A stretch of 64,000 nt of DNA from contig CAYLWL010000001.1 in NCBI GenBank assembly GCA_964387675.1, positions 74,819-138,818 of the forward strand. Reading direction: 5' to 3'. The stretch comes from an uncultured Candidatus Saccharibacteria bacterium. GTDB taxonomy: Bacteria; Patescibacteriota; Minisyncoccia; UBA6257; 2-01-FULL-56-20. The position numbers and the translations under genes are program-made. Under the pieces are notes generated by a model, which saw only the letters and a list, made by a program, of their open reading frames with translations, did not search any database and was not told where the DNA came from. Shown here one piece after another: positions 12,926 through 58,789 of this stretch (positions within the stretch are counted from its first letter, which is position 1; every line of letters starts with the position of its first letter).

Positions 12926-12968
12926 TAAAATACTAGATTCTAGATTCTAGATTCTATATTCTTAATAT

Positions 12969-13556: not shown

Positions 13557-13595
13557 GTCGTATTCTACTTTCTACATTCTACTTTCTACATTCTC

Positions 13596-19434: not shown

Positions 19435-19553
19435 CCCGTTAGAAATAGGACGCGGACGCAACCGTCCACCCCAATTTTAGTTTTTTTACGTGAATTATTG
19501 CCATTTCGAAGTAAGACATCTGGTTTTTGGCGCGTCCGCGATTTCTAACGGGA
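19432..19553. repeat. Family-2 hairpin element, copy B (arms CCCGTTAGAAAT ... ATTTCTAACGGG)
   Basis: The arms carry a compensatory AT-for-GC change relative to copies A and C, plus an extended stem 'CGCGGACGC/GCGTCCGCG'. One arm is fused to the dnaA ATG. Confidence 0.7.
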
Positions 19554-19719
19554 TCAATTTTTATTTTATGAAAGCGATAGATTCATTCTATTTTTTATCT
19601 GGACGAAGTCAAAGAGCGAGAATCGGCAACTTTGGGGATTACCTGTTAATAACTTTTTCAACCGAGACAAACCGGGTCTCGTTTGTACCCATCAACAGTA
19701 CCATGTTAGTATAGATGAT

Positions 19720-19854
19720 ATGTCGGTTACCTATCAACCGAAGAAAAAGAAGAGAAAAAGGGCGCACGGCTTCCTCGCGAGGCAAAGAAGGTCGTCGGGA
19801 CGCAATGTGCTCAAAAGAAGGCGCGCCAAAGGACGACGCCGGCTTACTGTCTAA
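19720..19854 (+). CDS. rpmH: 50S ribosomal protein L34
   Basis: 44-aa ORF '[44 protein letters not shown]'. It is absent from the ORF track because it is under 60 aa. Classic position between dnaA and rnpA. Confidence 0.8.
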
Positions 19855-19925
19855 TTTGTGGCTTTTAGGTTATAGGTTTTAGGATATGAAAACTGACACC
19901 TCATAGCTGAAACCGAGCACCTCGT

Positions 19926-20252
19926 TTGATGTTTCCCAGGAAATACAGACTTCCTATGCGCGAGAAGGTCGCCCTCCGAGAAACTTTCAGGACCCCGTAC
20001 TTTTTACTCAAAACGTCCTCCAGCGAAAGCGGACACAATAGATTCGGCATTATCGTTTCAAACGCGGCGGTAAAGAAATCCGTCCGCCGTCACCTTTGGA
20101 AAAGAAGGTTCGCCCATCATATCCGCCTATGGCCGAACATCAGGAAAGACATTTTGGTAATCGTTTCTCCGAACATAGAAAATGTATCCACGAAGGACTT
20201 AAAGAAAGAATTGGACAAGATGCTACAAAAGTTATTAATTACTAATTTCTAA
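19926..20252 (+). CDS. rnpA: ribonuclease P protein component
   Basis: Basic 108-aa protein directly after rpmH with an RnpA-like 'RLRK...F' pattern. Confidence 0.7.
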   Translation: MMFPRKYRLPMREKVALRETFRTPYFLLKTSSSESGHNRFGIIVSNAAVKKSVRRHLWKRRFAHHIRLWPNIRKDILVIVSPNIENVSTKDLKKELDKMLQKLLITNF

Positions 20253-23134: not shown

Positions 23135-23860
23135 TTATTTTACAAAAATAAGGTTTACTCCGGCGTTCGCAACTTCGGTAATACTCCCCGGAATCCCGGC
23201 CGTGAAGTTTACGTTGACCGGAGAGCCGGAGGGAGCGTCCGAATTAAGAGTCACCGTCAAGGACTCCGGACTCTCGAGATTTTGCGAAGATTGCCCGTTT
23301 ACAGACCAAGAAAAATTTAGTTGAGACGACTTTCCCACGTTGAAGAAGAACGGCCATCCTTTGAATCCGATTGAAGTCGAAGAAAATCTGCCGCGAGGGA
23401 ACGGCGACTCGATGACCGCTTCGGGAACCACGACCGGAATCTCGATTGTTTTTAAGACGGGATTTGCTTGATCCGATCCGTACGATGGCAGTTCCACCCG
23501 GAGATCAATGGTGTTTTGCGCGACGCTTGGAGCGTTGAAACTGATTTTTCGCAGACCTACACCCCCCGCGGTAAATTCGCTGTTTACGTACCAATACACT
23601 TGTTGGCCGGAGAGGTCGACGCGAGTTCCGTTGTCAATAAGCTCAACCGAAGCCGTGATGGGAGAATTGGCCGTGGGGAGCGCTTTTCCCGTAAACCAAG
23701 AAGGAACGTACGTATTTGTTTTCCAGGTAATCATAAGCCGTGGCCCTTCGACGCGGCTCAGGACAAGCCCGGATTGTTGAGCTCGCGCCGGCGCGAGAAA
23801 AATAAACAGGGCGGCCGTCACGGTAAGCGTTGTGAGTATAACTTTTTTGCGGTGCTTCAT
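23135..23860 (-). CDS. secreted hypothetical protein (T4SS-like locus)
   Basis: Signal peptide, Ser/Asn-rich, no recognisable domain. Confidence 0.4.
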   Translation of the reverse strand: MKHRKKVILTTLTVTAALFIFLAPARAQQSGLVLSRVEGPRLMITWKTNTYVPSWFTGKALPTANSPITASVELIDNGTRVDLSGQQVYWYVNSEFTAGGVGLRKISFNAPSVAQNTIDLRVELPSYGSDQANPVLKTIEIPVVVPEAVIESPFPRGRFSSTSIGFKGWPFFFNVGKSSQLNFSWSVNGQSSQNLESPESLTVTLNSDAPSGSPVNVNFTAGIPGSITEVANAGVNLIFVK

Positions 23861-24662: not shown

Positions 24663-26402
24663 TTACCCGCTCTCCTCGAGTAGTTGCTGGGGATTCGTGG
24701 TAATCACTTTATCCTCGAAAAAAGAAGATACGATCTGGATCGCCACGTGTTTCTTGCCCGCGAAAAAGAGTCCGGTTCCGACCTCCGACCCCAGGAGAAA
24801 GTTTTTTTCGGCGTTCGTGAGGTCGAACGCTTTCGCCACGACATCAATCGTCGCCGGCGCCTGTTTCAATAAGAGCTGGAGCGAGGAATTGGTGATAATG
24901 GGCCGGCCGTAGGGAGAGCGCAAGAAGTCCTCAACGTCCTGGGTGATGGTCGAAACGCCGAGATAATACTTTCTCGCTCTTTTCACGAGGCCGAACAGGA
25001 ACGTGGCGCTGTCTTCGTTTTTCATCATCCACCACGCCTCGTCGATGATCAAAAGACGCCGTTTGAGTTCGGCTCGAATCAGGTTCCAGATAAAGTTCAA
25101 AATCACAAACATCGCGATCGGCCGCAGTTCTTCTTCAAGGTCGCGGATCGAGAAAATGATCAATCGGTTCGTGATGTCGATATTCGTTCTTTGGTTCAAA
25201 AATCCCGAAAAGCTCCCTTTCGTGAATTTATAGAGCCGTTCGGCCATCGTCCTCCCTCCTTCGATACTTCGCAGCACGGTTTCCAGGTCTTCGAGGAGCG
25301 GCGGCTCGGCTTGCGAAAAATCCTGATCGGCTACGATTTCTCTCGAAGCGTACGTTTCCGTGATCGCCCTGTCGAGGAGCGCGTCTTCTTCGGCCGTGAC
25401 TTTGCCTAACATTAACTTCACCAAACTCGCGAGGTTTACGATGTGCGAGCGGAGGACGTCCGATGGCGATTCGTCTTTCGGCACGATGGGAATGTCGAAC
25501 GGATTGATGTGCTCGTGGGACGAGAGAGAAATGTTGAAAACGCTTCCGCCCAGGGCCTCCGCCAGCTTGCGGTATTCGTTTTCCGGATCGATGACGATTA
25601 CGTTTTCCACGCCGATCATGAGCGATCGCATGATTTCGAGTTTGGTGGCATAGGACTTTCCCGATCCCGATTTCGCGAAGACGACTTGATTCGCGTTTTC
25701 CAGAGAAAACCGGTTGAATATGACCAAACTGTTGTTGTGAAGGTTCACGCCATAGAGAATTCCTTCATTCGACGAAAGGTCTTCGGATACGAAAGGAAAA
25801 AGGGAAGATATAGGTTGTGAATTCATAGGATTCCACACTTGGAGCTGGTCGTCGCCCAAAGGAAGGATCGAGCAAAACCCCTCCAATTGTTCGAAAAGCG
25901 CCGGCCTCGCGTAAATCAACTTTGATTCCGTGATTGATGTTAGTTTTCCTTCGAGGCGGGATAACTCCTCTTCGCTATCCGCGTAAATCGTGATATACAC
26001 GCCGAGGTTGAACAGTTTTTCTTCCGATTGCTGGAGCGTGTCGCGCAGTGTCTCCACGTCGCGGAGCGCCGTCTCGAGCATGGGATCTCTTACGAGTCCT
26101 TTATCCTGATTTTCCATAATTTGGGATTCCAGCTGGGCGGACTTTTTGCGCAGGTTCTTGAGAGCGGTGCCGGTGTCCACGGGATTCACGAAAATCGATA
26201 CGTCGAAAAGGTTGGGCAGATTGATCAGCTGTTCGGCCCATCCCGTCGAGAGGTAGCGGGGGTACGAGAACAAAAAGAAACTCTTGGCGAGTTTATCGCC
26301 GATTTTGAGATGAGAGGGGAGTACTTGGATTCCTGACGGAGCGATAATTTTTACTATCCCTTCGAAGCCGTTTTCTTTTTTTTCTTTTTCCTGCTCGGCC
26401 AT
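24663..26402 (-). CDS. VirB4/TrbE/CagE-family conjugative ATPase, C-terminal ATPase part
   Basis: Walker A 'KSGSGKS' and Walker B 'LLIIDEAWWMM'. Confidence 0.65.
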   Translation of the reverse strand: MAEQEKEKKENGFEGIVKIIAPSGIQVLPSHLKIGDKLAKSFFLFSYPRYLSTGWAEQLINLPNLFDVSIFVNPVDTGTALKNLRKKSAQLESQIMENQDKGLVRDPMLETALRDVETLRDTLQQSEEKLFNLGVYITIYADSEEELSRLEGKLTSITESKLIYARPALFEQLEGFCSILPLGDDQLQVWNPMNSQPISSLFPFVSEDLSSNEGILYGVNLHNNSLVIFNRFSLENANQVVFAKSGSGKSYATKLEIMRSLMIGVENVIVIDPENEYRKLAEALGGSVFNISLSSHEHINPFDIPIVPKDESPSDVLRSHIVNLASLVKLMLGKVTAEEDALLDRAITETYASREIVADQDFSQAEPPLLEDLETVLRSIEGGRTMAERLYKFTKGSFSGFLNQRTNIDITNRLIIFSIRDLEEELRPIAMFVILNFIWNLIRAELKRRLLIIDEAWWMMKNEDSATFLFGLVKRARKYYLGVSTITQDVEDFLRSPYGRPIITNSSLQLLLKQAPATIDVVAKAFDLTNAEKNFLLGSEVGTGLFFAGKKHVAIQIVSSFFEDKVITTNPQQLLEESG

Positions 26403-26413
26403 TTTAATTTTTT

Positions 26414-26443
26414 AGCTTTTAGCTTTTAGGTGTTAGCTTTTAG
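26414..26443. repeat. AGCTTTTAG iteron-like 30-bp repeat R1
   Basis: 'AGCTTTTAGCTTTTAGGTGTTAGCTTTTAG'. Near-identical copy at 27121-27150 and an inverted copy at 27584-27613. Confidence 0.7.
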
Positions 26444-26451
26444 CACTAAAA

Positions 26452-27114: not shown

Positions 27115-27120
27115 GTAAAT

Positions 27121-27150
27121 AGCTTTTAGCTTTTAGGTGTGAGCTTTTAG
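27121..27150. repeat. AGCTTTTAG iteron-like repeat R2
   Basis: 'AGCTTTTAGCTTTTAGGTGTGAGCTTTTAG'. Confidence 0.7.
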
Positions 27151-27159: not shown

Positions 27160-27531
27160 TTATAACCCACCTTTAAGCTTCGTGCTTAGTTTTGTTATCA
27201 TGACGCTAAGCATTTTTTGAACTTCCTCTAAAAGAGAAACAACAGAGACGAAATCTAGGGTTGGATATAGTTTTTGAGAAATAATTACTTGGGTTTCCAA
27301 TTCCGCCGAAGACGCGTCTGCGATTCTTAGGAATTGTAAGTATTCCGGAAGGTCTTTTCTTCTCGATCCTTCGGCTATGTTTGACGGAATTGAAATTGCC
27401 GATCGTCTCATTTGAGAAATAAGGCCATATAATTCTTCTCGGGGGAATTGTTTGGTTAATTCGTATATTTTTTCAACCAAGCCAATCGATTTTTTCCAGA
27501 CTTCTAGGTCTTTGTACGATTTTATATACAT
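27160..27531 (-). CDS. four-helix-bundle protein (23S rRNA intervening-sequence / Avd-like family)
   Basis: '...KQFPREELYGLISQMRRSAISIPSNIAEGSRR...' matches the TIGR02436/PF05635 pattern. The gene is bracketed by R2 and the inverted R3. Confidence 0.65.
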   Translation of the reverse strand: MYIKSYKDLEVWKKSIGLVEKIYELTKQFPREELYGLISQMRRSAISIPSNIAEGSRRKDLPEYLQFLRIADASSAELETQVIISQKLYPTLDFVSVVSLLEEVQKMLSVMITKLSTKLKGGL

Positions 27532-27583
27532 TAAAAGCAGCTTTCAGCTGTTAGATGTTAGCTTTTAGTTTTTGTAATCGTAC

Positions 27584-27613
27584 CTAAAAGCTAAAAGCTA
27601 AAACCTAAAAGCT
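27584..27613. repeat. AGCTTTTAG iteron-like repeat R3 (inverted)
   Basis: Reverse complement is 'AGCTTTTAGGTTTTAGCTTTTAGCTTTTAG'. A partial direct copy lies at 27548-27573. Confidence 0.7.
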
Positions 27614-28853: not shown

Positions 28854-30035
28854 TCAAGGTTGTACTGGCGGCGTTGGCGGTTTCGGGGGAAGTGGCGGTT
28901 TTGGTAGTATAGGTGGTTTAATCTCGCTGATTATCGGCGAGAGTGTTTTATGCTCATCAAGACCTCGAATGGCAGGTGCCGCTGGTGGTTTCGGGATGGT
29001 CGGAGACGTAAGCGGTTTCGGAACCGGAGGCAGAGAGGATGGCGTTTTGACTTCGCTTGTTGGGAGCTTGTCTTGGGCGGTTTCGAGGGGCTTGTTCGCC
29101 TGGGGTGTGGCTGGTCTGATTGCGGCGAGCTGTTTGAGAATATCGGATCCGCCAAGGGACGGCTTCGACGACTCAATAGCCGTGATTTCTTTTATTTCGC
29201 GCCCTGGCTTGCCCTCTGTAGCCTTAGCGAAGGAGGGGGCCGCGCCGGAAGGTTTATCCTGAGCCGCGCCGAAGGGCGTTTTGGACTCCGTGTAGTGCAC
29301 CACCCGCACCTGCTCCTTGTTACTTGTCACTTGTTGCCTGTTACTCGTCGAGGGTCCGAATTCAAGCACGGCCGGTTTCGTTGCTTCGGTTTTAAGTTTT
29401 ATTTCCGACAGTTTCGGCTGTGGCATTTCCAGTCGGAATTCTTTTTTGAGAGGAGCGGAAACCGGTTCTTCGTGAAGAATCATCGGCGGCGGTGTGCCGG
29501 GGCTTGGGACCGCCGGTTTGCCGGGCGGTACCGGAGAAATTGACGGAGTTAGTGGAGCGGGGGGCTTCTCGGCGCGGTTTATCACAGGCGGCATCGAAGG
29601 GCTTGGCGCAAACGGTTCGGCGGTTTTCGCCGCCGGAAGAAGCGGCGGTTTTATTTCCGTGACTGGTTTTAGCGGTTCGGTTTTACTTATCATAACGGGA
29701 GCGAAGGCGGACGGCGGCTCGTATATTTTTTCCAAGTCAGCCAAGAGCGGCTTAAAAACTCTTTCGTTTACGGCGTTGGCGATGGATGTCGCGATTTGAA
29801 TGTCCAAGCCGAGCGCGTCTTTTAATTCTTGCGCGAAGTCTCCCGCGTGGATAAAGCCCAAGAGCACATAGCCGGCAATTGCCGCGACGCGATAAATCTT
29901 TTCTTTTGGTACGTGCTCCGCTTCGCAGGTTCGCCAGAGGAAATCAGAATGTACGTCGGAATAGAGAGCCTCCTTTAATTTACTTGGTAGCGTGTCCCAC
30001 CGCGCCAACGCTTGATCTGGAGAAATCGTTATCAT
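28854..30035 (-). CDS. Pro-rich hypothetical protein (structured N-terminal domain plus long P/S/T/K-rich disordered region)
   Basis: 393 aa. Contains an in-frame GTGACA-family repeat coding 'QVTSNKEQ'. Confidence 0.4.
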   Translation of the reverse strand: MITISPDQALARWDTLPSKLKEALYSDVHSDFLWRTCEAEHVPKEKIYRVAAIAGYVLLGFIHAGDFAQELKDALGLDIQIATSIANAVNERVFKPLLADLEKIYEPPSAFAPVMISKTEPLKPVTEIKPPLLPAAKTAEPFAPSPSMPPVINRAEKPPAPLTPSISPVPPGKPAVPSPGTPPPMILHEEPVSAPLKKEFRLEMPQPKLSEIKLKTEATKPAVLEFGPSTSNRQQVTSNKEQVRVVHYTESKTPFGAAQDKPSGAAPSFAKATEGKPGREIKEITAIESSKPSLGGSDILKQLAAIRPATPQANKPLETAQDKLPTSEVKTPSSLPPVPKPLTSPTIPKPPAAPAIRGLDEHKTLSPIISEIKPPILPKPPLPPKPPTPPVQP

Positions 30036-34344: not shown

Positions 34345-35196
34345 TCATGAGGCCATGGCGCGGGCTATCCGAACTATATCTTCTACGCTCAAGTTCTGTG
34401 GTCTGCTTTTGGGGTCTACGCCCATTTTTATTAGGGTTTCGGCGATGCTTTCTTTGCTTTCTGGCTTACCGGTGGTTTTGCGGCTTCGGTCTTGACACCT
34501 GATACTTGACACCTGACACATATTATTGAGAATCGTTTTCCTCGGCTGGGCAAAAAGAATTTTCACGGTTTTATAGTAAAGTTGCTCCCTGACGCCTGAC
34601 ACATGACACTTGACGCTTAGTTTGACGATCGCCGAATCGACTTCCGGCTGTGGGTCGAAATCTTTTCTTGGGATGAGGCCGATCAATTGCGGGTCTGCCC
34701 AAAATTGGACGATCGCGGCCAAACGATTCATTCGCGGGGGCGCGGCGCAAATTCTTTCCGCGACTTCTTTCTGGATAGTGAAGACGCACAACTCTGGCTT
34801 CGTTGACAATTCGCTCAATATTCTCAAAAGTTTTCCGGTAATGTAGTAGGGAATATTGCCGACAATCTTATATTCAGATTTAAGATTTATGAATTTTGAT
34901 TTAAGAATGCTTAAGGCGTCACCGTTTAGAATTTCTATATCTTTAATTCCTAAATCATAAATCCTACTTCTTAAATCATTCGCAAGCTTTGGATCTTTTT
35001 CAATCGCAATAACTTTTATCGGCGGCGAGCCGTTTTTTTCTAAAAGCTCACAGCTAAAACCTAAAAGCTCTTCAGTCAGCTCTCCGTGCCCCGGGCCGAT
35101 CTCGACGATGGTGTCGCCGGGTTTCAATTCCACGGCACCGACGATTTTTCGAATCGCCGATCTATTTTGCAAGAAATGTTGGCCCAGCCGCTTCAT
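34345..35196 (-). CDS. rsmA: 16S rRNA (adenine1518/1519-N6)-dimethyltransferase RsmA/KsgA
   Basis: 'LGQHFLQNRSAIRKIV...IVEIGPGHGELT'. The C-terminal region carries two in-frame TGACAC-repeat insertions coding Cys/Gln/Val/Ser-rich peptides. Confidence 0.8.
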   Translation of the reverse strand: MKRLGQHFLQNRSAIRKIVGAVELKPGDTIVEIGPGHGELTEELLGFSCELLEKNGSPPIKVIAIEKDPKLANDLRSRIYDLGIKDIEILNGDALSILKSKFINLKSEYKIVGNIPYYITGKLLRILSELSTKPELCVFTIQKEVAERICAAPPRMNRLAAIVQFWADPQLIGLIPRKDFDPQPEVDSAIVKLSVKCHVSGVREQLYYKTVKILFAQPRKTILNNMCQVSSIRCQDRSRKTTGKPESKESIAETLIKMGVDPKSRPQNLSVEDIVRIARAMAS

Positions 35197-35235
35197 ATAG
35201 GAATTAAAAACTACGAGTAAACAATTATCAATTAT

Positions 35236-35279
35236 GTTGTTTGCTTGGCACTATGCTATAGCATAGTGCCAAGCAAACA
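35236..35279. terminator. perfect 20-bp palindromic hairpin (bidirectional terminator candidate)
   Basis: 'TTGTTTGCTTGGCACTATGC tata GCATAGTGCCAAGCAAACAA' between the helicase stop and the rsmA start. Confidence 0.55.
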
Positions 35280-35286
35280 AGCCTAG

Positions 35287-37143
35287 CTAATCAAGCGTTA
35301 CATAATCTTCCTCGAAAGAAGTGACGTCGGTTGCGTTTTGACCTTCAAAAACAGTGAGCTCTTCCGGAATTTCGGAAATAAATCTCGACGGCGTATTGTG
35401 GAAACCGATGCAGAGCTCGCGCTTTGCCCGCGTCATCGCGACGTACATCAGTCGCCGCTCTTCTTCCATTTGATACTCGTTTTCCATAGACATCGCGTGA
35501 GGCAGGAGCCCTTCGGAACAGCCGGCGATAAAAACGCGGTCAAACTCCAATCCTTTTGCCAAATGGATCGTCATGAGATGTGTTTCATTTTCGCCGTCTC
35601 TTGTCCCTTGTCCCTTGTTACTTGTTACACTATCGGCGGGCTGCATCAGCGTGATTTCTTCTAAAAACCGACCCACATCATCGAATCGCTTCGCGAAATT
35701 CAAAAGCTCCCCTATGTTTTCTTGTTTTTCCTCGTAATTCTCGAAGTTTCTTTCGAGATACCCAAGATAATCCGTGGCCTCGAGAAACGATTCGATCCAT
35801 TGAACCGGCTTCAGCTTTTTGCTTTTCGCGAGCCGTATCGTTTCTTCGAATCCGCTAAGTTTTTTCTTGGAGAAGTTCTTTTCGAGCCGATCGAAGCTGA
35901 TTTCGTCTTTATTGGTCGCGTAACGGAGCGCGGCAATGACGTCTTTGATTTCTTTCCGCTCGTAAAACCTCAAGCCGCCGAAAATTCGGTACGGTATTTT
36001 ATTTCTAATGAGCGCTTGCTCGATCGCTCTCGACTGGGCGTTCGTTCTGTATAGAACCGCAGTCGTTTGTTCATTGGAAATTGGAAATCGGAAATTGGAA
36101 ATTTGCTTTGCGATCCATTCCGCCTCATTGTTTTCGTCCGCCGCTCCGAAAACTTTTATCGATTCCCCCTTCTGATTTTTCGTCCAAAGGTTTTTCGGCC
36201 GCCGGTAATTATTATTACTCGCCACACTCGAGGCCCCCTTGATGATATTCGCGGTTGACCGATAGTTTTCTTCCAAGAACCGTATTTGGGCGCCCGGCCA
36301 GTCCTTTTCAAATCCCAGAAATATTTTGAGATCCGCGTATCGCCATCCGTAAATCAATTGTTCGTCATCGCCCACCACGCTGATATTTTTGTGTTCTCCG
36401 GCCAGGAGATTGACGAGCTCGTACTGTTTTGGATTGACGTCTTGATACTCGTCGACGAGGATCGCCTCGAACCTGCTTCGATGTTTTTCGAGCGCCTCGG
36501 GATGTTTTTGGAAAAGAGATACGACTTTCTCTATGAGGTCGTCGAAATCGAAGGCGTTATTTTCTTTGAGCCGCGATTCGTAGAGAGCATATACTTCGAG
36601 CGCCAGTTTGTCTTTTTGCTTTTCGGATAGCCGTAGTTTTTGGAGCGCCGAGTCGGTATTTTTTATTTCGGAGATTCTTCTCGCGAAAAACGACGGCTTT
36701 TCTTGGCTTGCGGCTGAGGAATCATCGTCGCCGCCGTTCCATAGTTTTTTCTTCACGATCTTTTTTATGAGATCGAACGAATCATGGTCGTCGAAAATGA
36801 CGAAGCGCGCATTGCGGCCGAGGAGGCGCGCCTCCTGCCGCAGGATGTTCGCCCCCAAGCCATGGAAAGTGCCGATAAACGCTCCTTGACACTTGACACT
36901 TGCCTGCCCGCCGTAGCCCCGGCGAAGGAGGGACGCTTGACACCTCGTAAACATCTCCCGCGCCGCCTTATTGGTAAACGTTATGGCGCAGATTTTATGC
37001 GCCGGGACCCCGGATTCTATGAGGTTGATGAGCCGGGCGGTCAGGGTGGTCGTTTTCCCGGTCCCGGCTCCGGCTACTATTAAAAGGGGTCCGCCGGGGG
37101 CTTTTGCCGCCTCTTCTTGCTGGGGATTCAATTTATGTGACAT
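35287..37143 (-). CDS. UvrD/PcrA/Rep-family ATP-dependent DNA helicase
   Basis: 'LLIVAGAGTGKTTTL', 'TFHG' and 'VDEYQD' motifs. Start placed at 'MSHKLNPQQ'. Contains three in-frame repeat insertions. Confidence 0.8.
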   Translation of the reverse strand: MSHKLNPQQEEAAKAPGGPLLIVAGAGTGKTTTLTARLINLIESGVPAHKICAITFTNKAAREMFTRCQASLLRRGYGGQASVKCQGAFIGTFHGLGANILRQEARLLGRNARFVIFDDHDSFDLIKKIVKKKLWNGGDDDSSAASQEKPSFFARRISEIKNTDSALQKLRLSEKQKDKLALEVYALYESRLKENNAFDFDDLIEKVVSLFQKHPEALEKHRSRFEAILVDEYQDVNPKQYELVNLLAGEHKNISVVGDDEQLIYGWRYADLKIFLGFEKDWPGAQIRFLEENYRSTANIIKGASSVASNNNYRRPKNLWTKNQKGESIKVFGAADENNEAEWIAKQISNFRFPISNEQTTAVLYRTNAQSRAIEQALIRNKIPYRIFGGLRFYERKEIKDVIAALRYATNKDEISFDRLEKNFSKKKLSGFEETIRLAKSKKLKPVQWIESFLEATDYLGYLERNFENYEEKQENIGELLNFAKRFDDVGRFLEEITLMQPADSVTSNKGQGTRDGENETHLMTIHLAKGLEFDRVFIAGCSEGLLPHAMSMENEYQMEEERRLMYVAMTRAKRELCIGFHNTPSRFISEIPEELTVFEGQNATDVTSFEEDYVTLD

Positions 37144-37162
37144 GTGACAAGCAACAAGTAAC

Positions 37163-38302
37163 ATGGAACACGTAACAACAGATAATGCGGGGAGGGGGAA
37201 CTTTTCTTTGCCCTTCGTCCTTGTCACTTGTTACTTGTCCCATGTCTCATCGTTATGCTATAGTTTACCTATTAGTAAGATTTTAAGCCAAATAAAGTCA
37301 AATAACGACCATAAGCCATTGAAAGTGGCCGTTTTTTTGATTGCCGGGCTTGCGTTCTGCTCCTTTTTCTATGATCCGGGCACCGGCCTATTAGGCGGCG
37401 AGAGGGGTATCTTTGGCGGACCCGTAGACCAGGTTTTTACCCCTGGCAACATCATCCTCGAAACGGCCTCGGCATTTGGCGAGGGATCTCCCACGGGAGG
37501 CGCCTCGCTCCACAACACGGCTCTTGAATCAAGCGTTTTTCCCGGCTCGTTGAGTGATAGAGAGTCGGGTTTTGGCCAGACCTCCTCTCGCGAGGGGCTT
37601 TTAGTGTATCGGGTTCAGAAAGGCGATACGCTCTCCGGAATTTCTTCTTATTTCGGCGTATCTTTGGATACGATCGTGAACGCGAACCCGAACGTCAAGG
37701 CGAGGTATCTGGTTCCGGGGGATGAGCTCAAGATTCTGCCCACCTCCGGAAGCGTGTATCTCACTCGGGATGGCGACACGATGGAATCGATTTCGGATTA
37801 TTTCAATGTGCCGCAGGACAGCTTGTTGAAATTTAACAGATCCGTCAATTTCAACTCTCTCGAAGCGGGCGTTTCCGTTGTCATCCCCGGAGTGAAGGGG
37901 TATGCCCAAAGCAAGAACTCGCTTCCGAACTTGAACAGCAACTTCATCATTCCCGCGCAGGGCTTTAATTGGGGCAAACTTCATCACTATAACGCGGTGG
38001 ACATCGCAAACTCCTGCGGAACGCCGGTTGTGGCTTCTGCCGAAGGGCTTGTAATCCCCGACAACAGTTTCGGAGACGGAAGGGGCGGCTGGAGCGGCGG
38101 TTACGGGAATTTCGTCTTGATAGAGCACCCGTTTGGCGACTCCGTTCGCACTCGCTATGCTCATTTGTCCAAAGTATTAGTTGATATTGGTGACTATGTT
38201 AAACAGGGCGAGGAGATAGGTGTTATGGGAGATAGCGGGGACTCTACGGGTTGCCACCTCCATTTCGAGGTGTACGGGGCGCAGAATCCATTTGTCCGGT
38301 AG
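37163..38302 (+). CDS. M23-family metallopeptidase with two LysM domains
   Basis: LysM 'YRVQKGDTLSGISSYFGV' and 'TRDGDTMESISDYFNV'; M23 motifs 'HYNAVD' and 'GCHLHFEV'. The true start is probably internal (TTG 37318 or GTG 37324) because the first ~50 codons overlap the helicase leader and repeat DNA. Confidence 0.75.
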   Translation: MEHVTTDNAGRGNFSLPFVLVTCYLSHVSSLCYSLPISKILSQIKSNNDHKPLKVAVFLIAGLAFCSFFYDPGTGLLGGERGIFGGPVDQVFTPGNIILETASAFGEGSPTGGASLHNTALESSVFPGSLSDRESGFGQTSSREGLLVYRVQKGDTLSGISSYFGVSLDTIVNANPNVKARYLVPGDELKILPTSGSVYLTRDGDTMESISDYFNVPQDSLLKFNRSVNFNSLEAGVSVVIPGVKGYAQSKNSLPNLNSNFIIPAQGFNWGKLHHYNAVDIANSCGTPVVASAEGLVIPDNSFGDGRGGWSGGYGNFVLIEHPFGDSVRTRYAHLSKVLVDIGDYVKQGEEIGVMGDSGDSTGCHLHFEVYGAQNPFVR

Positions 38303-43384: not shown

Positions 43385-43448
43385 GTAATCACTAAATTAC
43401 GAATCTAAAACGAATTACGAATTCGTAATTCGTTGCTCAATTCGTAAT
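43385..43448. promoter_or_regulatory. palindromic operator-like array in the nusA leader (AATTACGAAT units)
   Basis: A perfect 22-bp palindrome 'CGAATTACGAATTCGTAATTCG' with additional half-sites on either side. Confidence 0.45.
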
Positions 43449-43461: not shown

Positions 43462-44706
43462 ATGATCAATATCAAGGAATTAAGCAAAGCGCTCAAACAG
43501 GTTGCCGAAGAAAAAGGCCTTAAGCCGGAAGAGGTGCTGGAAGCCATCGAGTCCTCGATAGCTGCTGCTTACAAAAAAGAATACGCCGAGCGCGGAGCGG
43601 TGGTGAAGTGCAAGCTCGACATGAAAACCGGAGAGTTGAAGTTTTGGCAGGTTAAAACCGTCGTCGATGAAACAACCGTCCGTTTTGTCGAGGAGAAAAC
43701 GGAAGAAGAGATCCAAAAAGAGGAACAGGAGGGGAAAAAAGAAGAGCCGGCGCCTGTCGTAGATTCGGAAGAACTCAAGCTTCCTCGTTATAATTCAGAG
43801 CGGCATATCTTGTTTGAAGAAGCGAAGAAAATAAAGTCCGACACCGAGCTGGGAGAAGAATTGATTTTTCCTCTTGAAACCCATGACGAGTTTGGAAGAA
43901 TCGCCGCGCAAACCGCGAAGCAGGTCGTGTTGCAAAAGCTAAGGGAATCAGAAAGGGATTCGATTTTGAAAGAGTGGCATGATAAAGAAGGACAAATTGT
44001 GAGCGGCGTTGTCCAGAGGTTCGAGCGGGGGCATGTGTATGTTGATCTCGTACGGACGATCGGAGTGATGTTCGCGAACGAATCTATCCCGGGCGAACAC
44101 TACCGGGCAGGCGAGCGTTTGCGATTCCTTGTTCTTGCCGTTCAAGAGGACTCGCGGCTTCCGGGCATCGTCCTTTCTCGTTCGCATCCGAGATTCGTGG
44201 TGGAGCTGTTTCGGATGGAGGTGCCGGAGCTTGCCGAGGGTGCCGTGGAAATAAAGGCGATTGCGAGAGAGCCGGGAAACCGCACAAAGCTTGCCGTTGT
44301 TTCTCATGTCGACGGAGTCGATCCCGTGGGAGCTCTCGTTGGCCAGCGCGGGACGAGAGTGATGGCGGTTAATAATGAGTTGGGCAATGAAAAGATAGAT
44401 ATTGCCGAGTGGTCCGAAGATCCGGAAAAGTTTATTGGGAACGCCCTTTCTCCCGCGAAAGTGCGGTCGGTTGAAGTATTGCCTCGACGCGAGGCGAGAG
44501 TGTATGTGCCCGAAGACCAATTGAGCTTGGCTATCGGCAAAGGAGGACAAAATGTTCGGCTTGCGGCAAAACTCACCGGATGGAAGATAGACGTTCGTTC
44601 GCAGACGCGGCCGAGCGAAGTGCAAGAAGGAGGAGTTGCCGCCGCCCTTGGAGAAGAAGAGCCGGCAAAAGAAAGTTTTGAAGAGAAGGGAGACGTGGCA
44701 ATGTGA
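43462..44706 (+). CDS. nusA: transcription termination/antitermination factor NusA
   Basis: NusA N-terminal domain, S1 and two KH domains; 414 aa. Confidence 0.85.
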   Translation: MINIKELSKALKQVAEEKGLKPEEVLEAIESSIAAAYKKEYAERGAVVKCKLDMKTGELKFWQVKTVVDETTVRFVEEKTEEEIQKEEQEGKKEEPAPVVDSEELKLPRYNSERHILFEEAKKIKSDTELGEELIFPLETHDEFGRIAAQTAKQVVLQKLRESERDSILKEWHDKEGQIVSGVVQRFERGHVYVDLVRTIGVMFANESIPGEHYRAGERLRFLVLAVQEDSRLPGIVLSRSHPRFVVELFRMEVPELAEGAVEIKAIAREPGNRTKLAVVSHVDGVDPVGALVGQRGTRVMAVNNELGNEKIDIAEWSEDPEKFIGNALSPAKVRSVEVLPRREARVYVPEDQLSLAIGKGGQNVRLAAKLTGWKIDVRSQTRPSEVQEGGVAAALGEEEPAKESFEEKGDVAM

Positions 44707-47887: not shown

Positions 47888-47896
47888 TCTCAAAAA

Positions 47897-47939
47897 ACCT
47901 TTCCATTATAACATAATATTATGTTATAATGGAAAGGTT
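47897..47939. terminator. perfect ~21-bp palindrome after clpP
   Basis: 'ACCTTTCCATTATAACATAAT/ATTATGTTATAATGGAAAGGT'. Confidence 0.5.
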
Positions 47940-50791: not shown

Positions 50792-50861
50792 TTGCAGGTG
50801 TCCCGCCTCCGGCGGGACCTTCGCCAATTGCTATTCTATGAATCCTAAATCCTCAATCGTA

Positions 50862-50895
50862 AATCTTCAAGCAAAAGCGAAGGCCGGCTCCTGGA
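50862..50895 (-). terminator. hairpin terminator candidate after gene 50908..52311
   Basis: The minus strand reads 'AGCCGGCTCCAGGAGCCGGCC' followed by a T-rich tract. Confidence 0.4.
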
Positions 50896-53042: not shown

Positions 53043-53296
53043 ATGGTTCCACCGCATTGCTCCTCGGAAACAAAACAGAGAAGACGACCATCGCAAGTCA
53101 TTTGGCTACCGCTCGCGTCCCCAGCGAGGACGCTCGCTGGCGCTTCTTCCTCGCTCTCCTTCGACACGGCTCAGGAACCATGCCCGCTCGGTCGAAGAGC
53201 CGCGCCGAATGACTTGCGACGGTCGTCTCCGGCGCGAGAGGAACCTCGGGGCAACGCGGGAGGGCTTTGTCTTGGTGGTTGAGGGGTTGGTAGAAG

Positions 53297-53371
53297 GGGC
53301 GCATAGCTCAATGGCAGAGCACCGAGCTTATACCTCGGCGGTTCTAGGTTCGAATCCTAGTGCGCCCACCA
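53297..53371 (+). tRNA. tRNA-Ile (anticodon UAU)
   Basis: Acceptor GGGCGCA/TGCGCCC, D-arm GCTCAATGGCAGAGC, anticodon stem CCGAG/CTCGG with loop CTTATAC, T-arm CTAGGTTCGAATCCTAG, CCA encoded. Confidence 0.8.
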
Positions 53372-54893
53372 GTATTAAACTTTCAGAAATTTTGCCAATG
53401 GATTTTGCCGCGCGAAGCGCGGAAAGGTATGGAAACACTGGCTCGCCGCGCACGGCGCGGCTCGCCAAGCGCAGGTTCGAGCCAAAGATTTCTTTGGCGG
53501 CAACCTTTTTCTCTTGAAGGTTGCTATCCCTTGCGATTTTGACGAGGTTTGAAGCGACTTTTATCCAGTTTTGGAAGGGTTCGAGCCAATCATTCTGCTT
53601 TTGTTCAATCCGCGTCATTTTCTCGTCCAGCGACTTCTTTTCAGACAACAAGATAGCTTTCTGTTCTCGGTATATTTCTCGCTCAATATCCTGTTCCAAA
53701 TAGCCATCCAGAAGTCGCTGGAGCTTCGTTTGTATCGCGCGGATTTTGATTTGGCTTTCTTGAACAAAAGCAGAAACGGATTGGGCGGATACCGCTTTGT
53801 CTTTTTCTGCCATTGCTAAAAGTTTTTCCGCCCAATCCGCGCGCAAAGAAAATTTTTGAAGCAGAGAGGAAATTTGTTTGTCCAGTTCCTCTTGGCGAAT
53901 ACAGGGTTCGAGACACTTTATTGATTTGTTTTTCTTGGTGCAATGATAGTAAATATAATCGTGGACATTTCCATTTTTCTGCTTCTTAACCCTGTATTCG
54001 CCAGTTATGGACATTCCACAAGTGCCGCACTTCAGTAGCCCGCACAAATGTTGCGGCTCATACTTTGTTTTGTGGTGCGGCCTTCCTCTCTGCTTCAAAA
54101 CTTCCTGAACTTTATCAAAAATTTTCTTTGCGACGATTGGCTCATACTTTCCTTCGTGGAGTTCACCGCTGTATTTGAATAGTCCGGTGTAAAAAGGATT
54201 TGAGAGGATAAAAGTCGCCCTCGTCTTGTGGATTCTCTTTCCACCGCGGGATAGTATCCCGCGGTGCGCCAAAAAGTCCGAAATGTCCTCTAACCGTGAA
54301 TTGCCCTCGGCGTAAAGTTCAAAAGCCCCGCGAATAACTTTTGCTTTCTTCCTATCCACTACCACTGTTTTTGTGCGGCTGTCGTTGATATAGCCGATGG
54401 GCGCGGGGCCGGGATATTCTCCGCGCTTTACTTTTTGGCGCAAACCGCGCTTTGTGTTTTCGGAAAGAGAATCCACATAGTATTTGCTTTGCCCAAATAC
54501 AATGTTCAACATAAATTTTCCTTGCGGCGTATTTTCAAACCACAGCGTTGGAAATTTCAAGCTCGCAAGTTTTTCAGTGTCCAAAAGATAAATGATACGC
54601 CCGCCGTCCACAGAATTGCGCGCCAATCTGTCCGCGTGCCAAGCCAAAATTCCGTTGGCCTCGCCTCGTTCTATCTTGTCCAGCATCTCGTTAAATATCG
54701 GCCTACCCGGAATTTTGGCTGATTGTTTTTCAATAAGGACATCAACGATATTCAAATTTTCTTGTTTTGCAAAGGCGCGCAATTCCGCGATCTGGTCTTC
54801 AATCGAGCGCACTTGTTTATCCTCCACATCGGTGGACTTGCGGGCGTAAAGGAAAAATTTATGTTGTTCCATATTCATAGTTTTATTGGGCAA
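53328..54893 (-). CDS. large serine recombinase (resolvase N-domain plus recombinase domain plus zinc ribbon)
   Basis: 'FLYARKSTDVEDKQVRSIEDQ' catalytic Ser region and 'CGLLKCGTCG' zinc motif. The 3' end reads through IR-A into the tRNA, so the true stop is uncertain. Confidence 0.8.
   Translation of the reverse strand: MPNKTMNMEQHKFFLYARKSTDVEDKQVRSIEDQIAELRAFAKQENLNIVDVLIEKQSAKIPGRPIFNEMLDKIERGEANGILAWHADRLARNSVDGGRIIYLLDTEKLASLKFPTLWFENTPQGKFMLNIVFGQSKYYVDSLSENTKRGLRQKVKRGEYPGPAPIGYINDSRTKTVVVDRKKAKVIRGAFELYAEGNSRLEDISDFLAHRGILSRGGKRIHKTRATFILSNPFYTGLFKYSGELHEGKYEPIVAKKIFDKVQEVLKQRGRPHHKTKYEPQHLCGLLKCGTCGMSITGEYRVKKQKNGNVHDYIYYHCTKKNKSIKCLEPCIRQEELDKQISSLLQKFSLRADWAEKLLAMAEKDKAVSAQSVSAFVQESQIKIRAIQTKLQRLLDGYLEQDIEREIYREQKAILLSEKKSLDEKMTRIEQKQNDWLEPFQNWIKVASNLVKIARDSNLQEKKVAAKEIFGSNLRLASRAVRGEPVFPYLSALRAAKSIGKISESLILVGALGFEPRTAEV
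53368..53480. repeat. IR-A (113 bp), left inverted repeat flanking the recombinase; starts within the tRNA-Ile 3' end
   Basis: Near-perfect reverse complement of 54921-55033. Confidence 0.8.
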
Positions 54894-54920
54894 AGCAAAT
54901 ACTTAAAATCGCAAGGGATT

Positions 54921-55033
54921 TCGAACCTGCGCTTGGCGAGCCGCGCCGTGCGCGGCGAGCCAGTGTTTCCATACCTTTCCGCGCTTCGCGCGGCAAAATC
55001 CATTGGCAAAATTTCTGAAAGTTTAATACTGGT
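54921..55033. repeat. IR-A' (inverted copy of IR-A)
   Basis: Reverse complement of 53368-53480, including 'CACCAGTATTAAAC' derived from the tRNA 3' end. Confidence 0.8.
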
Positions 55034-55182
55034 GCGTTTGTTTGACGAAATCCGAACCTTTTTTGAACAGAACTGACCGCCTCCGCTTCGCTCCAGCGGA
55101 ACGCTCGGGCGCGGCGGAATTCCCCCCTTGAACCCCCCTTCCGCCGCGCCCTCGCAAGAGGCCAGAATTTTTTCGCCGCCAA
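55034..55182. repeat. IR-B (GC-rich ~150 bp), left inverted repeat flanking the cargo genes
   Basis: Near-perfect reverse complement of 56766-56911. Confidence 0.8.
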
Positions 55183-55260
55183 TCCAATTAAGAAATGATT
55201 AAGCATAGTTATACTATAGTATAACCGTTGTCCAACAAAACAACAAGTGATAAACTGTGT

Positions 55261-55476
55261 ATGAAGAATATGCAAGAAATATCAAAGAAATTAGGCGAGA
55301 ACTTGAAAAAGGTTCGCGCCAAGAAAAAATTGTCGCAAGGAGCTTTAGCGCGGCTTTTAGAGGTTGATAAGGGCTATGTAAGCAACATTGAGAGTGGTAA
55401 GAAAAATCCTACCCTTGCGACAATTCAACGATTAGCTGACGCGCTCGGTGTGACGGCTGATGAACTATTGAAATAA
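55261..55476 (+). CDS. XRE-family helix-turn-helix transcriptional regulator
   Basis: 'LSQGALARLLEVDKGYVSNIESGKKNPTLATIQRLADALGV'. AT-rich cargo. Confidence 0.75.
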   Translation: MKNMQEISKKLGENLKKVRAKKKLSQGALARLLEVDKGYVSNIESGKKNPTLATIQRLADALGVTADELLK

Positions 55477-55477
55477 T

Positions 55478-55966
55478 ATGGTTTACTTTCGCGAACAAGA
55501 AAAATTTAGAGCGCGCGCAGAAGAATTATTTTTGAAAGAGCAAAAAAGAATTTTGCGCGTTGTTCCAAAGGCAGATATTCAGCACATCGGAAGCACTGCG
55601 GTTCCCGGCTCTCTAACAAAGGGCGACCTTGATATTCAGGTTAGAGTTAAAGAAAAAGATTTTGATAAAGCGCAAAATGCTCTTTCAAAAATGTATAAAC
55701 CAAATAAAGGAAATCCTTCCACGAAAACGTATGCGAGCTTTAAGGATGACAGTACAAAAATTCCTCTTGGGGTTCAGCTAACAGTTATTGGTTCTAAAGA
55801 GGATAATTTTACGACTTTGAGAGATATTTTGATACGCGATAAAAAACATCTGAAAGAATATAACTCCCTGAAAAAGCGGTACCAAGGAAAATCAATGCAA
55901 GAATACCGAAAAGCTAAAGGAAAGCTTGTTGGAAAAATTTTGAAATCAAAAACCAAGAGAGTATGA
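55478..55966 (+). CDS. GrpB/UPF0157-family nucleotidyltransferase-fold protein
   Basis: 'HIGSTAVPG...KGDLDIQV'. Confidence 0.6.
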   Translation: MVYFREQEKFRARAEELFLKEQKRILRVVPKADIQHIGSTAVPGSLTKGDLDIQVRVKEKDFDKAQNALSKMYKPNKGNPSTKTYASFKDDSTKIPLGVQLTVIGSKEDNFTTLRDILIRDKKHLKEYNSLKKRYQGKSMQEYRKAKGKLVGKILKSKTKRV

Positions 55967-56754: not shown

Positions 56755-56765
56755 TATATTTCTGT

Positions 56766-56911
56766 TTGGCGGCGAAAAAATTCTGGCCTCCCGCGAGGGC
56801 GCGGCGGAAGGGGGGTTCAAGGGGGGAATTCCGCCGCGCCCGAGCGTTCCGCTGGAGCGAAGCGGAGGCGGTCAGTTCTGTTCAAAAAAGGTTCGGATTT
56901 CGTCAAACAAA
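56766..56911. repeat. IR-B' (inverted copy of IR-B)
   Basis: Reverse complement of 55034-55182 with a few substitutions. It is followed by A2 (56912-57080), a divergent (about 70% identical) copy of IR-A. Confidence 0.8.
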
Positions 56912-57270: not shown

Positions 57271-57274
57271 TTGG

Positions 57275-57855: not shown

Positions 57856-57918
57856 GCCGCCTTTTTGAAAAAATTGCCACCGGATTTCGTGCCGGTCAAA
57901 GACTGGCGCGCCGCCTAA

Positions 57919-58572: not shown

Positions 58573-58789
58573 ATTCTAAGGCGTTTATGATTTATTAAAT
58601 TTTAGCGGTTTTTATATCGAAAAGAAAGGGCCCGCGAAATCTCGAATTGAGATAGTCACGGGCCCAGATGCCAGATGAGAGAATAGCCGAACTTTACGGA
58701 ACTCTGGCGAGTTCCGCGAACTCGTTGCAAGCCCGCGAACCATTAGCACCACCTCGGCGTAGTTCCAATCTTGCTGATATACGGGTTAT

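Follow-up and report, generated by a model that had tools for sequence, protein, structure and literature searches.

Heptanucleotide repeat arrays in spacers and protein loops of a Candidate Phyla Radiation bacterium and an associated 30-nt hairpin mini-element

Tandem heptanucleotides known as STRRs (for short tandemly repeated repetitive sequences) were reportedly described by Mazel et al. in 1990 in heterocyst-forming cyanobacteria; the canonical STRR1-3 units are CCCCAGT, TTGGTCA, and CAACAGT. Small dispersed repeats (SDRs), attributed to Elhai et al. in 2008, are said to be mini-elements of Nostoc, 21-27 nt long, classed as SDR1-8, and found in one cyanobacterial subgroup. Rickettsia palindromic elements (RPEs), attributed to Ogata et al. 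in 2000, are reportedly about 100-150 bp long, follow a family consensus, and are specific to Rickettsia. The present analysis concerns a 64-kb stretch of DNA (hereafter, the window) that matches contig JACQKV010000018.1 of assembly GCA_016204365.1 base for base, and in particular its tandem arrays of 7-nt units, which occur in spacers and inside rsmA, a PcrA/UvrD-type helicase gene, and a Pro-rich open reading frame (ORF), together with a 30-nt hairpin mini-element that is embedded in one of these arrays.

Several further systems provide context. Vioque (1997) is credited, in a citation in PMC2858038, with reporting STRRs inside RNase P RNA genes, and passages of PMC3116915 and PMC4390886 cite the SDRs as a mobile family. 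Repetitive extragenic palindromic (REP) sequences and their hairpin-forming doublets (REPINs) are mobilised by Y1 transposases of the REP-associated tyrosine transposase (RAYT) type (PMC3116915, PMC3733652). The G-rich GGGNATC heptamer repeats of Xanthomonas and Nostoc are intergenic, strongly over-represented, and sometimes arranged as inverted pairs; at a given intergenic site, related species may differ in both the sequence and the length of the repeat (PMC4692102). The tandem repeats within ORFs of Borgs have a unit divisible by three, are perfect and fast-evolving, and create disordered protein regions (PMC9879509). The literature searched contains no paper that links heptamer repeats to Candidate Phyla Radiation (CPR) bacteria and none that matches the sequence words of the 30-nt element.

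The arrays of the window are real and strongly non-random, far beyond chance. The first-pass annotation had described them as TGACAC/GTGACA hexamers. A tandem array is present at every site that it listed, including a degenerate one at 1915-1949, but the unit was misread, as it is 7 nt long (e.g., CTTGACA CCTGATA CTTGACA CCTGACA). Measured against block shuffles of the window, period 7 is enriched in a period scan (20 arrays vs. 0.5 in the shuffles, and 8 vs. 0 at a stricter cut-off); in the same scan of the window, the other periods among 4-15 are at background level, and periods of 7 or 14 make up about half of the Tandem Repeats Finder rows. Likewise, TGACACNTGACAC with up to two mismatches has 17 matches, compared with 1.6 expected, and none of 100 shuffles reaches this number. 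Once degenerate and inverted partners are counted, the full list for the window comprises 25 arrays, 13-43 nt in length, which consist of variable 7-nt units and possess neither common ends nor a full-length consensus. The phenomenon is therefore wider than the one unit noticed initially, as it involves several heptamer families, and the consensus units of the listed arrays form 35 unit-sharing pairs vs. 6.5 +/- 2.6 expected:

Family 1, AAG-N-N-[A/T]-C (the former TGACAC/GTGACA): 10 arrays at 7 loci (1915, 29309, 34491, 34588, 35596, 36885, 37135, 37220, 61225, 61265)
Family CTTTTAG / AGCTAAA: 5 arrays (26402, 27120, 27538, 27582, 35040)
Family TTCTAGA: 3 arrays (4356, 4427, 12924)
Family AATCCTA / TTAAGAT: 3 arrays (34873, 34946, 50839)
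Singletons: 3 arrays, ATTGGAA (36073), TTCTACT (13563), and AACACAA (20250)

Per 10 kb, the window has 3.1 period-7 arrays, three sister loci have 4.0, 21 CPR-labelled loci 1.2, and 59 non-CPR loci 0.16, i.e., the window has approximately 20 times the density of non-CPR genomes. The loci for this comparison were fetched with a helicase probe; a helicase-profile scan of genome contigs yielded mostly distant taxa, which served as the control set.

Ten arrays lie within three genes (five in rsmA, four in the helicase gene, and one in the Pro-rich ORF of 393 aa):

34345-35196, minus strand: rsmA/ksgA gene, 283 aa, with five period-7 arrays
34491-34519, minus strand: family-1 array in RsmA, peptide CQVSSIRCQ; about +10 aa vs. 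KsgA (6IFS)
34588-34618, minus strand: family-1 array in RsmA, peptide SVKCHVSGVR; net length change of 0 vs. KsgA, with other arrays at this loop in sister genomes
34873-34902 and 34946-34977, minus strand: weak inverted array pair TTAAGAT / AATCCTA in RsmA, flanking the conserved GDAL segment; z -2.5 and -3.1
35040-35069, minus strand: CTAAAAG-family array in RsmA, peptide ELLGFSCELLEKN; +11 aa vs. KsgA
35287-37143, minus strand: PcrA/UvrD-type helicase gene, 618 aa
35596-35628, minus strand: helicase loop C, family-1 array, peptide SVTSNKGQGTRDG; +3 aa vs. PcrA (1PJR), predicted local distance difference test (pLDDT) score below 50 at residues 500-518
36073-36103, minus strand: helicase loop B, ATTGGAA array, peptide ISNFRFPISN (ISNFRFPISNEQ); 0 aa vs. 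PcrA
36885-36902, minus strand: helicase loop A, 3' part of the family-1 array in gene sense, AAGTGTC AAGTGTC AAGG
36933-36948, minus strand: helicase loop A, 5' part of the family-1 array in gene sense, GGTGTC AAGCGTC
29309-29342, minus strand: family-1 array in the Pro-rich 393-aa ORF, translated STSNRQQVTSNKEQV

Alignments with orthologues, PcrA, and KsgA show that the coding arrays are confined to variable linkers. The peptides quoted in the first-pass annotation (CQVSSIRCQ, SVTSNKGQGT, and RCQAS..VKCQGA, the last located just before GTFH) are correct and in frame, and the ORFs are uninterrupted, so that the arrays would be translated as low-complexity peptides. All family-1 coding arrays read AAGNNNC on the sense strand, and the unit variants used avoid in-frame stop codons; such avoidance is necessary because a 7-nt unit runs through all three frames every 21 nt. 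Whether the extra peptides are insertions was judged against G. stearothermophilus PcrA (1PJR) and B. subtilis KsgA (6IFS), and the proposal holds in part. There is a net gain at helicase loop A (+9 aa vs. PcrA, after motif Ia and just before GTFH), at loop C, and at two RsmA sites, whereas loop B and the other RsmA sites, including the 34873/34946 pair compared with KsgA, show no net change. As to a possible position of the peptides in surface loops, an AlphaFold model of the helicase (22 orthologues, mean pLDDT 68) gives all three array-coded segments (residues 78-84, 352-358, and 500-518) a score below 50, but other segments also score low, so that the model weakly suggests that the array loops may be surface-exposed.

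The helicase orthologue alignment (22 sequences, 55-71% identity) and the DNA of three sister genomes (L085, L087, and L089), which was used for orthologous loops and spacers, show how these positions vary. The three helicase loops are variable and of low complexity in nearly all 22 helicases, and in the sister DNA the loops are themselves heptamer arrays. At some sister loops and spacers, the arrays belong to the same family as in the window, and at others they consist of unrelated units. For example, the C-terminal loop of RsmA has family-1 arrays with differing copy numbers in all four genomes, and the array at 34491-34519 adds 8 aa relative to the three sister genomes, whose same loop contains shorter family-1 arrays. 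Every genome carries arrays in loops A and C of the helicase, in the loops of rsmA, and in the helicase/M23-peptidase spacer, often with unrelated units. At one site, loop B, the outcome is the one that the first-pass annotation had named as refuting its reading, as the peptide ISNF(Q/R)F(P/S)I is common to several orthologues of 55-62% identity; the other loops differ between genomes. The window, L087, and L089 all have the CAATTTC array of loop B (ISNFRFPISN, ISNLQFPIFN, and ISNFQFSIFK, respectively), with similar peptides in orthologues P0004 and P0007; this array is therefore ancestral and has been kept through about 40% protein divergence.

The remaining 15 of the 25 arrays are intergenic, within the 14.4% of the window that is non-coding (coding DNA accounts for 85.6%). 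Typically, an array takes up a spacer of 39-86 nt between two genes on the same strand and reaches right to the following start codon, as at 13563-13594, 26402-26444, and 61225-61293:

1915-1949, plus strand: degenerate family-1 array GAGTAAC ATGCGAC AAGTGAC AGGGGAC ATGGGCG, filling the 50-nt spacer between the iPGM gene and a holin-like gene
4356-4392 and 4427-4469, no strand: twin inverted TCTAGAA-type arrays forming a hairpin after the SBP_bac_5 stop codon; arms 81% complementary, judged by complementarity only
12924-12962, plus strand: TTCTAGA array with the yebC start codon on one side and a GC hairpin resembling an intrinsic terminator on the other
13563-13594, plus strand: TTCTACT/TTCTACA array, a perfect period-14 superunit filling the 39-nt yebC-ruvC spacer
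26402-26444, no strand: CTTTTAG array filling the spacer upstream of a TraG-like gene in the type IV secretion operon
27120-27136, no strand: TAGCTTT array in a 45-nt spacer beside a bAvd-like gene
27538-27573 and 27582-27613, no strand: inverted twins (AGCTTTT / CTAAAAG) that make up a hairpin within a spacer of 83 nt; minimum free energy (MFE) about -26 kcal/mol, z about -5
37135-37177 and 37220-37250, no strand: twin mirror-image family-1 arrays forming a hairpin of about 120 nt in the divergent helicase/M23-peptidase spacer
50839-50865, no strand: AATCCTA-type array between a terminator-like hairpin and tRNA-Gly
61225-61253 (degenerate) and 61265-61293 (perfect, 4 x CCTGACA), no strand: twin inverted family-1 arrays filling the 71-nt rny / Wzy_C spacer

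Repeats at the nucleic acid level that lie in frame inside conserved genes and form intergenic hairpins had been proposed for this DNA, and both aspects are confirmed. The hairpin announced downstream of rny (61225-61293) indeed has an MFE of -22 (plus strand) or -41 kcal/mol (minus strand), with z of -4.4 and -9.8, respectively; the hairpin at 37135-37250, whose left arm overlaps the helicase start codon, has an MFE of about -45 kcal/mol and z of -4.9 (plus strand) and -6.3 (minus strand). At both loci, the twin arms (37135/37220 and 61225/61265) mirror each other's unit variants; at 37135-37250, the two outer units are of the ATG type and the inner units of the AAG type in both arms. Such mirroring points to inversion-duplication of an already heterogeneous array rather than to separate growth of each arm. 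In the orthologous helicase/M23 spacer, the hairpin is built of AAGTGAC units in the window and of unrelated AAATCCT units in L085.

Selection for an RNA hairpin on one strand, sought in the asymmetry between G.U and A.C pairs, was rejected: the effect is strong at 61225-61293, where it is found on the antisense strand, and the picture is mixed elsewhere; the asymmetry is better explained by re-homogenisation of one arm. A periodic 'UAG + 4' binding site of the HutP/TRAP kind was rejected because the UAG-bearing strand is inconsistent with the direction of transcription, and Rfam matched only two tRNAs in the window. Other inverted repeats of the window are not built of heptamers: two perfect AT-rich palindromes lie downstream of clpP (47896-47939, AACCTTTCCATTATAACATAATATT...) and upstream of nusA (43409-43434, AACGAATTACGAATTCG...), and a perfect 22+22-nt palindrome (TTGTTTGCTTGGCACTATGCTA / TAGCATAGTGCCAAGCAAACAA) occupies 35237-35280 in the gap between the helicase stop and the rsmA start. 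All three helicase-carrying Logan contigs stop at 35251, inside this last palindrome.

Within the array of helicase loop A lies a discrete hairpin mini-element; a second copy and a related element are found in the Pro-rich ORF:

36903-36932, minus strand: 30-nt hairpin mini-element, C CCTCC TTCGCCGGGGCTAC GGCGGG CAGG, in helicase loop A, in register between heptamer units
29208-29237, minus strand: second, degenerate copy of the element, CCCTCC TTCGCTAAGGCTAC AGAGGG CAAG, in the Pro-rich ORF, peptide PSFAKATEGK
29251-29278, minus strand: copy of a related mini-element (second family), TTCGGCGCGGCTCAGGATAAAC, peptide TPFGAAQDKP

The composite in loop A reads, on the sense strand, ...GGTGTC AAGCGTC / CCCTCCTTCGCCGGGGCTACGGCGGGCAGG / C AAGTGTC AAGTGTC AAGG... 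The idea of palindromic insertions, as originally put forward, holds for one discrete hairpin mini-element, which has indeed been inserted in the helicase. At 29208-29237, alignment with the L085 orthologue shows gaps in the latter that add up to exactly 10 aa (30 nt). The element also occurs within the AAGCGAC array of L089 helicase loop C, in L085 helicase loop C, and in L085 NusA, where AAGCGAC units stand on both sides. Copies are read in different frames, the one in helicase loop A of the window as SLLRRGYGGQ and others as PSFAEASAGK or PAYAKASVGR. As regards NusA, the proteins of L085 (1-1311) and the window (43462-44706) are 86% identical; a loop in the N-terminal domain contains a block of about 33 aa made of AAGCGAC units and the 30-nt element in L085, the window is without the block, and L087 NusA has yet another low-complexity filling at the same loop.

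A metagenome scan with the pattern CCTTCGCNNNGGCTWCGGCGGRCARGC returned at least 120 loci with at least 122 copies. The consensus comprises a 6-bp stem (YCCGCC/GGCGGR), a conserved 14-nt loop (TTCGCCRAGGCTWC), and a tail, CARG. Among the matches listed, positions 0 and 25 covary (C-G 70, T-A 40, C-A 9, and T-G 1; chi-square p = 5e-19), the three positions left unconstrained in the pattern are almost always C-[A/G]-A, and the flanks are unrelated, with a locus GC content of 31-75%. A search with the loop only recovered compensated stems (CCCTCC/GGAGGG and CCCCGC/GCAGGG), to which the CCCTCC/AGAGGG of the second window copy may be compared. Since position 0 pairs with position 25, the element is placed at positions 0-29 and inserted 5' of a C; the junction is always beside a C, and there is no target duplication. 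Among the matches listed, the heptamer register is re-established in 17 of 118 copies when exactly 30 nt are taken out, vs. 2-7 for assumed lengths of 27-33 nt, and the flanking units are diverse (CGTTCCC, CCGACTC, AGGAGTC, CGGCTAC, and GAGTGAC). The element is free of stop codons in five or six of the six frames, depending on the W position, and approximately two thirds of the copies listed fall within open frames 200 codons or longer, with each of the six frame/orientation classes represented. The element loci are also enriched in heptamer arrays away from the element (0.8-1.7 per 10 kb vs. 0.16).

The element is widely distributed. One match lies on an AACY-accession contig, 12 additional viral contigs carry the element, and exact protein look-ups hint at Candidatus Acidiferrales (Acidobacteriota) and Allosphingosinicella (Alphaproteobacteria); it is absent from the PLSDB plasmid collection. 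On an Allosphingosinicella-like contig (L154, 7148-7570), the RNase P RNA gene (RF00010, 298 bits, 41 extra nt) contains the element within its P3 hairpin. The same gene contains a second relative in the opposite orientation (TCCGCCTTAGCCTTGGCGACGGTGGA) near its 3' end. At four metagenome loci (L128, L163, L104, and L191), copies are flanked by partial end duplicates or by a degenerate copy in reverse orientation, which suggests nested or tandem insertions; such insertions are also said to have been described for cyanobacterial SDR1 and SDR4. The second family of mini-elements, CCC-TTCGAC/TTCGGC-NNN-GCTCAGG[A/G][C/T]AA[A/G]C (core GCTCAGGRCAAGC), resembles the 30-nt element in outline and encodes peptides such as PFGAAQDKP and PFDSAQGKP. 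Six copies were found in the 2.3 Mb fetched: in the window at approximately 23747-23768 (plus strand) and 29251-29278 (minus strand), in L085 at 19324, and in L090, L156, and L168.

No recurring partner gene emerged from an all-vs-all ORF comparison of 132 listed element loci, in which only Ser/Thr kinases and ABC transporters recur, and Pfam annotation of the window revealed neither a reverse transcriptase nor a RAYT. The window contains an IS200/IS605-family Y1 transposase gene (57354-57785, plus strand; NCBIfam NF033573, E = 4.8e-30), overlapped by a same-length wrong-frame ORF (57344-57775). Its subterminal hairpins are CCCCGCC-TGTAAA-GGCGGGG (57293-57312) and CCAYGGC-TGTAAA-GCCATGG (about 57790-57808); this TnpA was considered as a mobiliser of the 30-nt element and set aside, as its hairpin loops (TGTAAA) are unlike the element and no link could be established.

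In terms of gene content, the window comprises the dnaA-dnaN / rnpA-yidC origin region, the type IV secretion operon, rsmA, the PcrA/UvrD helicase gene, an M23 peptidase gene, nusA, H+-PPase, clpP, tyrS, a low-GC island beside tRNA-Ile, and rny. The helicase protein has 100% sequence identity with an NCBI entry from a Candidatus Liptonbacteria metagenome-assembled genome (MAG). Within 53297-59000, tRNA-Ile (53297-53371) is directly followed by a large serine recombinase gene (53328-54893, minus strand) and a stretch of lower GC content (0.43-0.48), which, with its GrpB, methyltransferases, and IS200 element, looks like an integrated island; an inverted repeat (53082-53106 / 53204-53228) stands just upstream. 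The weak heptamer array TAGGTTA x3 (19866-19887) lies in the dnaA / rnpA intergenic region (19461-19926), the presumed replication origin. The type IV secretion operon also houses a gene (27160-27531, minus strand) for a small protein of the 23S_rRNA_IVP / bAvd family, a four-helix bundle; AGCTTTT-family arrays bracket this gene, no reverse transcriptase is found near it, and L085 also has a bAvd-like gene (2607-2951).

The stability of the arrays was assessed in 13 further assemblies with identical marker proteins (helicase, RNase Y, and bAvd-like), namely, Logan contigs from ten sequencing runs and a second MAG, GCA_016181795.1. Length polymorphism, which the first-pass annotation had proposed to look for, was not seen: wherever one of the 13 assemblies covers an array, the sequence is 100% identical. 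The arrays can thus be taken neither for products of faulty assembly nor for hypervariable switches; they are stable on population timescales. In the second MAG (L222), 16 nt are missing from the Wzy_C (O-antigen ligase-like) gene (62217-62232), causing a frameshift, and 68 nt are missing at 56892-56959; it is otherwise identical over 7 kb, and neither difference is at an array.

Taken together, the arrays are probably STRR-type heptanucleotide repeats, a dispersed multi-family class that occupies unconstrained DNA of the Candidatus Liptonbacteria genome studied here and of many other CPR genomes. It also seems reasonably likely that they are copied between sites, resized by slippage, mirrored by template switching, and filtered by selection, and that the 30-nt hairpin is a separate non-autonomous element with a preference for arrays. 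In this scheme, arrays would be seeded by copying between sites, a step suggested by the recurrence of the same unit families at many loci and in sister genomes. They would then lengthen or shorten by replication slippage in 7- or 14-nt steps, and inverted twins would arise by fold-back or template switching, as the mirrored unit variants of the arms suggest. Selection would purge arrays that break the frame, add a stop codon, or strike a constrained segment, so that spacers and tolerant linkers retain them. The loop A array would additionally have received the 30-nt element between heptamer units, the length of 30 nt keeping the reading frame. These generating and dispersal mechanisms are inferred from the patterns of the arrays.

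Several observations weigh against this interpretation. A single 7-nt slippage in an essential gene would shift the frame; growth in coding DNA would thus have to proceed in 21-nt steps or with compensating indels, which a pure slippage model accommodates poorly. No enzyme acting in trans came to light; an ordinary IS200-type TnpA with hairpins of its own is the sole candidate within the window. Support for surface loops comes from a medium-quality model (mean pLDDT 68) and from sequence alignment with PcrA and KsgA. The hairpin energy of the element is no different from that of shuffles in both window copies; because these copies are not thermodynamically exceptional, its structure rests on covariation rather than on energy. 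Finally, no insertion or array-length change was caught among the assemblies of the population, which are all identical.

Against this background, each array might be seen as a palindromic mobile element in miniature, a discrete unit of the RPE, REPIN, or miniature inverted-repeat transposable element (MITE) kind that transposes as a whole and lands in frame by chance. The occurrence of one unit family at seven or more loci and in sister genomes, the many inverted pairs that form hairpins, the in-frame position of arrays inside ORFs, the genuine 30-nt hairpin element embedded in one array, and the IS200-family Y1 transposase gene of the window would all fit. Nevertheless, this explanation is unlikely, as the arrays lack defined termini and a full-length consensus, range from 13 to 43 nt with differing unit number and variants, are commonly single and non-palindromic, in several coding cases add no net length relative to orthologues, and have no target-site signature that could be found, while the IS200 hairpins differ in their TGTAAA loops. 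Purely local simple sequence repeats (SSRs), generated by in-place polymerase slippage in a 7-nt register with neither transfer nor function, represent the opposite extreme. Many bacteria are reported to have an excess of heptamer SSRs, whose 7-nt register has been ascribed to the polymerase active-site footprint (PMC4692102, citing Mrazek 2007), and perfect or period-14 arrays do exist (61265-61293 and 13563-13594); however, unit families are common to unlinked loci (the 35 pairs vs. 6.5 expected), twin arrays mirror their unit variants, and in-frame persistence in essential genes is hard to achieve via 7-nt steps, all of which makes in-place slippage improbable as the whole explanation.

The triplets that HutP or TRAP read are spaced by 4 nt. 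A role as functional cis-elements, i.e., as RNA hairpins that stabilise or process transcripts or as platforms for a HutP- or TRAP-like oligomeric protein, could therefore be imagined for units that contain TAG + 4 nt, as many intergenic ones do, and for arrays located directly upstream of start codons; in addition, the helicase/M23 spacer keeps a long heptamer-built hairpin in both the window and L085 despite entirely different units. Yet the TAG-bearing strand has no consistent orientation to transcription, on the sense strand the hairpin at 61225-61293 is far less stable (-22 vs. -41 kcal/mol), no Rfam family matches the arrays in the window, and the same arrays lie inside protein loops, where a cis-regulatory role is implausible, so that we give this possibility little credence. 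Least of all can the arrays be regarded as contingency loci that switch phase by gain or loss of units: although a 7-nt unit that shifts the frame upon slippage is the classic design of such a switch, the host genes are housekeeping genes (rsmA and pcrA/uvrD), the arrays are short and imperfect, and no length difference exists across the 13 assemblies, including the second MAG. Given this population stability, a function in phase variation is very hard to maintain, and dispersed STRR-type repeats remain the preferred interpretation.

A bolder and more tentative proposal is that the heptamer families and the 30-nt element, with relatives such as TTCGAC..GCTCAGGRCAAGC, might be two faces of one mobility system that extends across bacterial phyla and phage contigs and is driven by a trans-acting enzyme, e.g., a Y1/HUH nuclease or a reverse transcriptase. 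If so, such a system would write short, frame-preserving, nearly stop-free modules into spacers, loops of essential proteins, and even RNase P RNA, and it would generalise the 'smallest mobile elements' that Elhai recognised in cyanobacteria to much of the bacterial world. Irrespective of this proposal, the origin and role of heptamer repeats have been a standing question since their cyanobacterial description, and the present findings carry this puzzle far outside the cyanobacteria; CPR bacteria, with their tiny genomes, show the same syndrome and offer independent lineages for comparison. Variable loops of essential CPR proteins appear to be partly 'written' by a DNA-level repeat process, which bears on alignment, phylogeny, structure prediction, and annotation. 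The near-invariant, covarying 30-nt element, in turn, provides a handle both for finding the enzyme that recognises it and for spotting the spurious-looking peptide words (PSFAKATADK, LRQGYGGQ, and RRSLGEGG) which it introduces into predicted proteins.

Comparison with the known systems narrows the classification. The resemblance to RPEs suggested by the first-pass annotation could not be upheld: RPEs are likewise selfish repeat DNA kept in frame inside ORFs and translated as an extra surface peptide (translation of the present arrays being presumed), but here there are 13-43-nt unit arrays with no common ends and no 100-150-bp palindromic consensus. The closest systems are STRR heptamers and SDR mini-elements rather than RPEs. 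With REP/REPIN sequences, the 30-nt element shares a short conserved hairpin, a non-autonomous nature, and the lack of a target duplication, and a single-strand HUH logic is plausible; in contrast to them, it is not extragenic and has no GTAG or CGTC head at the hairpin foot (among the matches listed, GTAG occurs only inside the reverse-strand loop, in about half of the copies, W = A). Furthermore, unlike species-specific REPs, it is nearly identical across phyla. No flanking RAYT was found: the window has an IS200-equivalog TnpA with different hairpins, and no such protein family recurs beside the element at the 132 listed loci. The window arrays share with the GGGNATC repeats an intergenic location, strong over-representation, occasional inverted pairing, and variation between relatives at corresponding spacers, but their units are not G-rich, cannot form G-quadruplexes, and occur inside ORFs as well. 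The arrays resemble Borg repeats as nucleotide tandem repeats that add low-complexity or disordered protein segments, but their unit is 7 nt and they are imperfect and stable; similarly, they differ from contingency-locus SSRs, which are perfect and length-polymorphic within populations, in being imperfect and identical in 13 assemblies.

The likeness to STRRs lies in tandem 7-nt units, in a few dispersed families (10, 5, 3, and 3 arrays) that are mostly intergenic (15/25), in the ability to extend hairpins, and in tolerance inside functional genes, here in protein loops. The differences concern the units (AAGTGAC, CTTGACA, TTCTAGA, CTTTTAG, and ATTGGAA), the host, which belongs to the CPR/Patescibacteria rather than to the cyanobacteria, and the in-frame position of arrays inside housekeeping proteins at loops common to several genomes. 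The 30-nt element, like SDRs, is tens of nucleotides long and dispersed, has a structure backed by compensatory changes, inserts precisely with no enzyme encoded alongside, and splits heptamer arrays in register in the window, in L085 and L089, and in approximately 17 of the metagenome copies among the matches listed; it differs in its length of 30 nt and in its occurrence in CPR, Acidobacteriota, Alphaproteobacteria, and viral contigs, with SDRs compared here by description. The feature would thus best be filed as an STRR/SDR-like syndrome, itself of a poorly understood kind, in a new lineage and with new properties, which are translated arrays at shared loop positions in housekeeping proteins and a cross-phylum 30-nt hairpin element.

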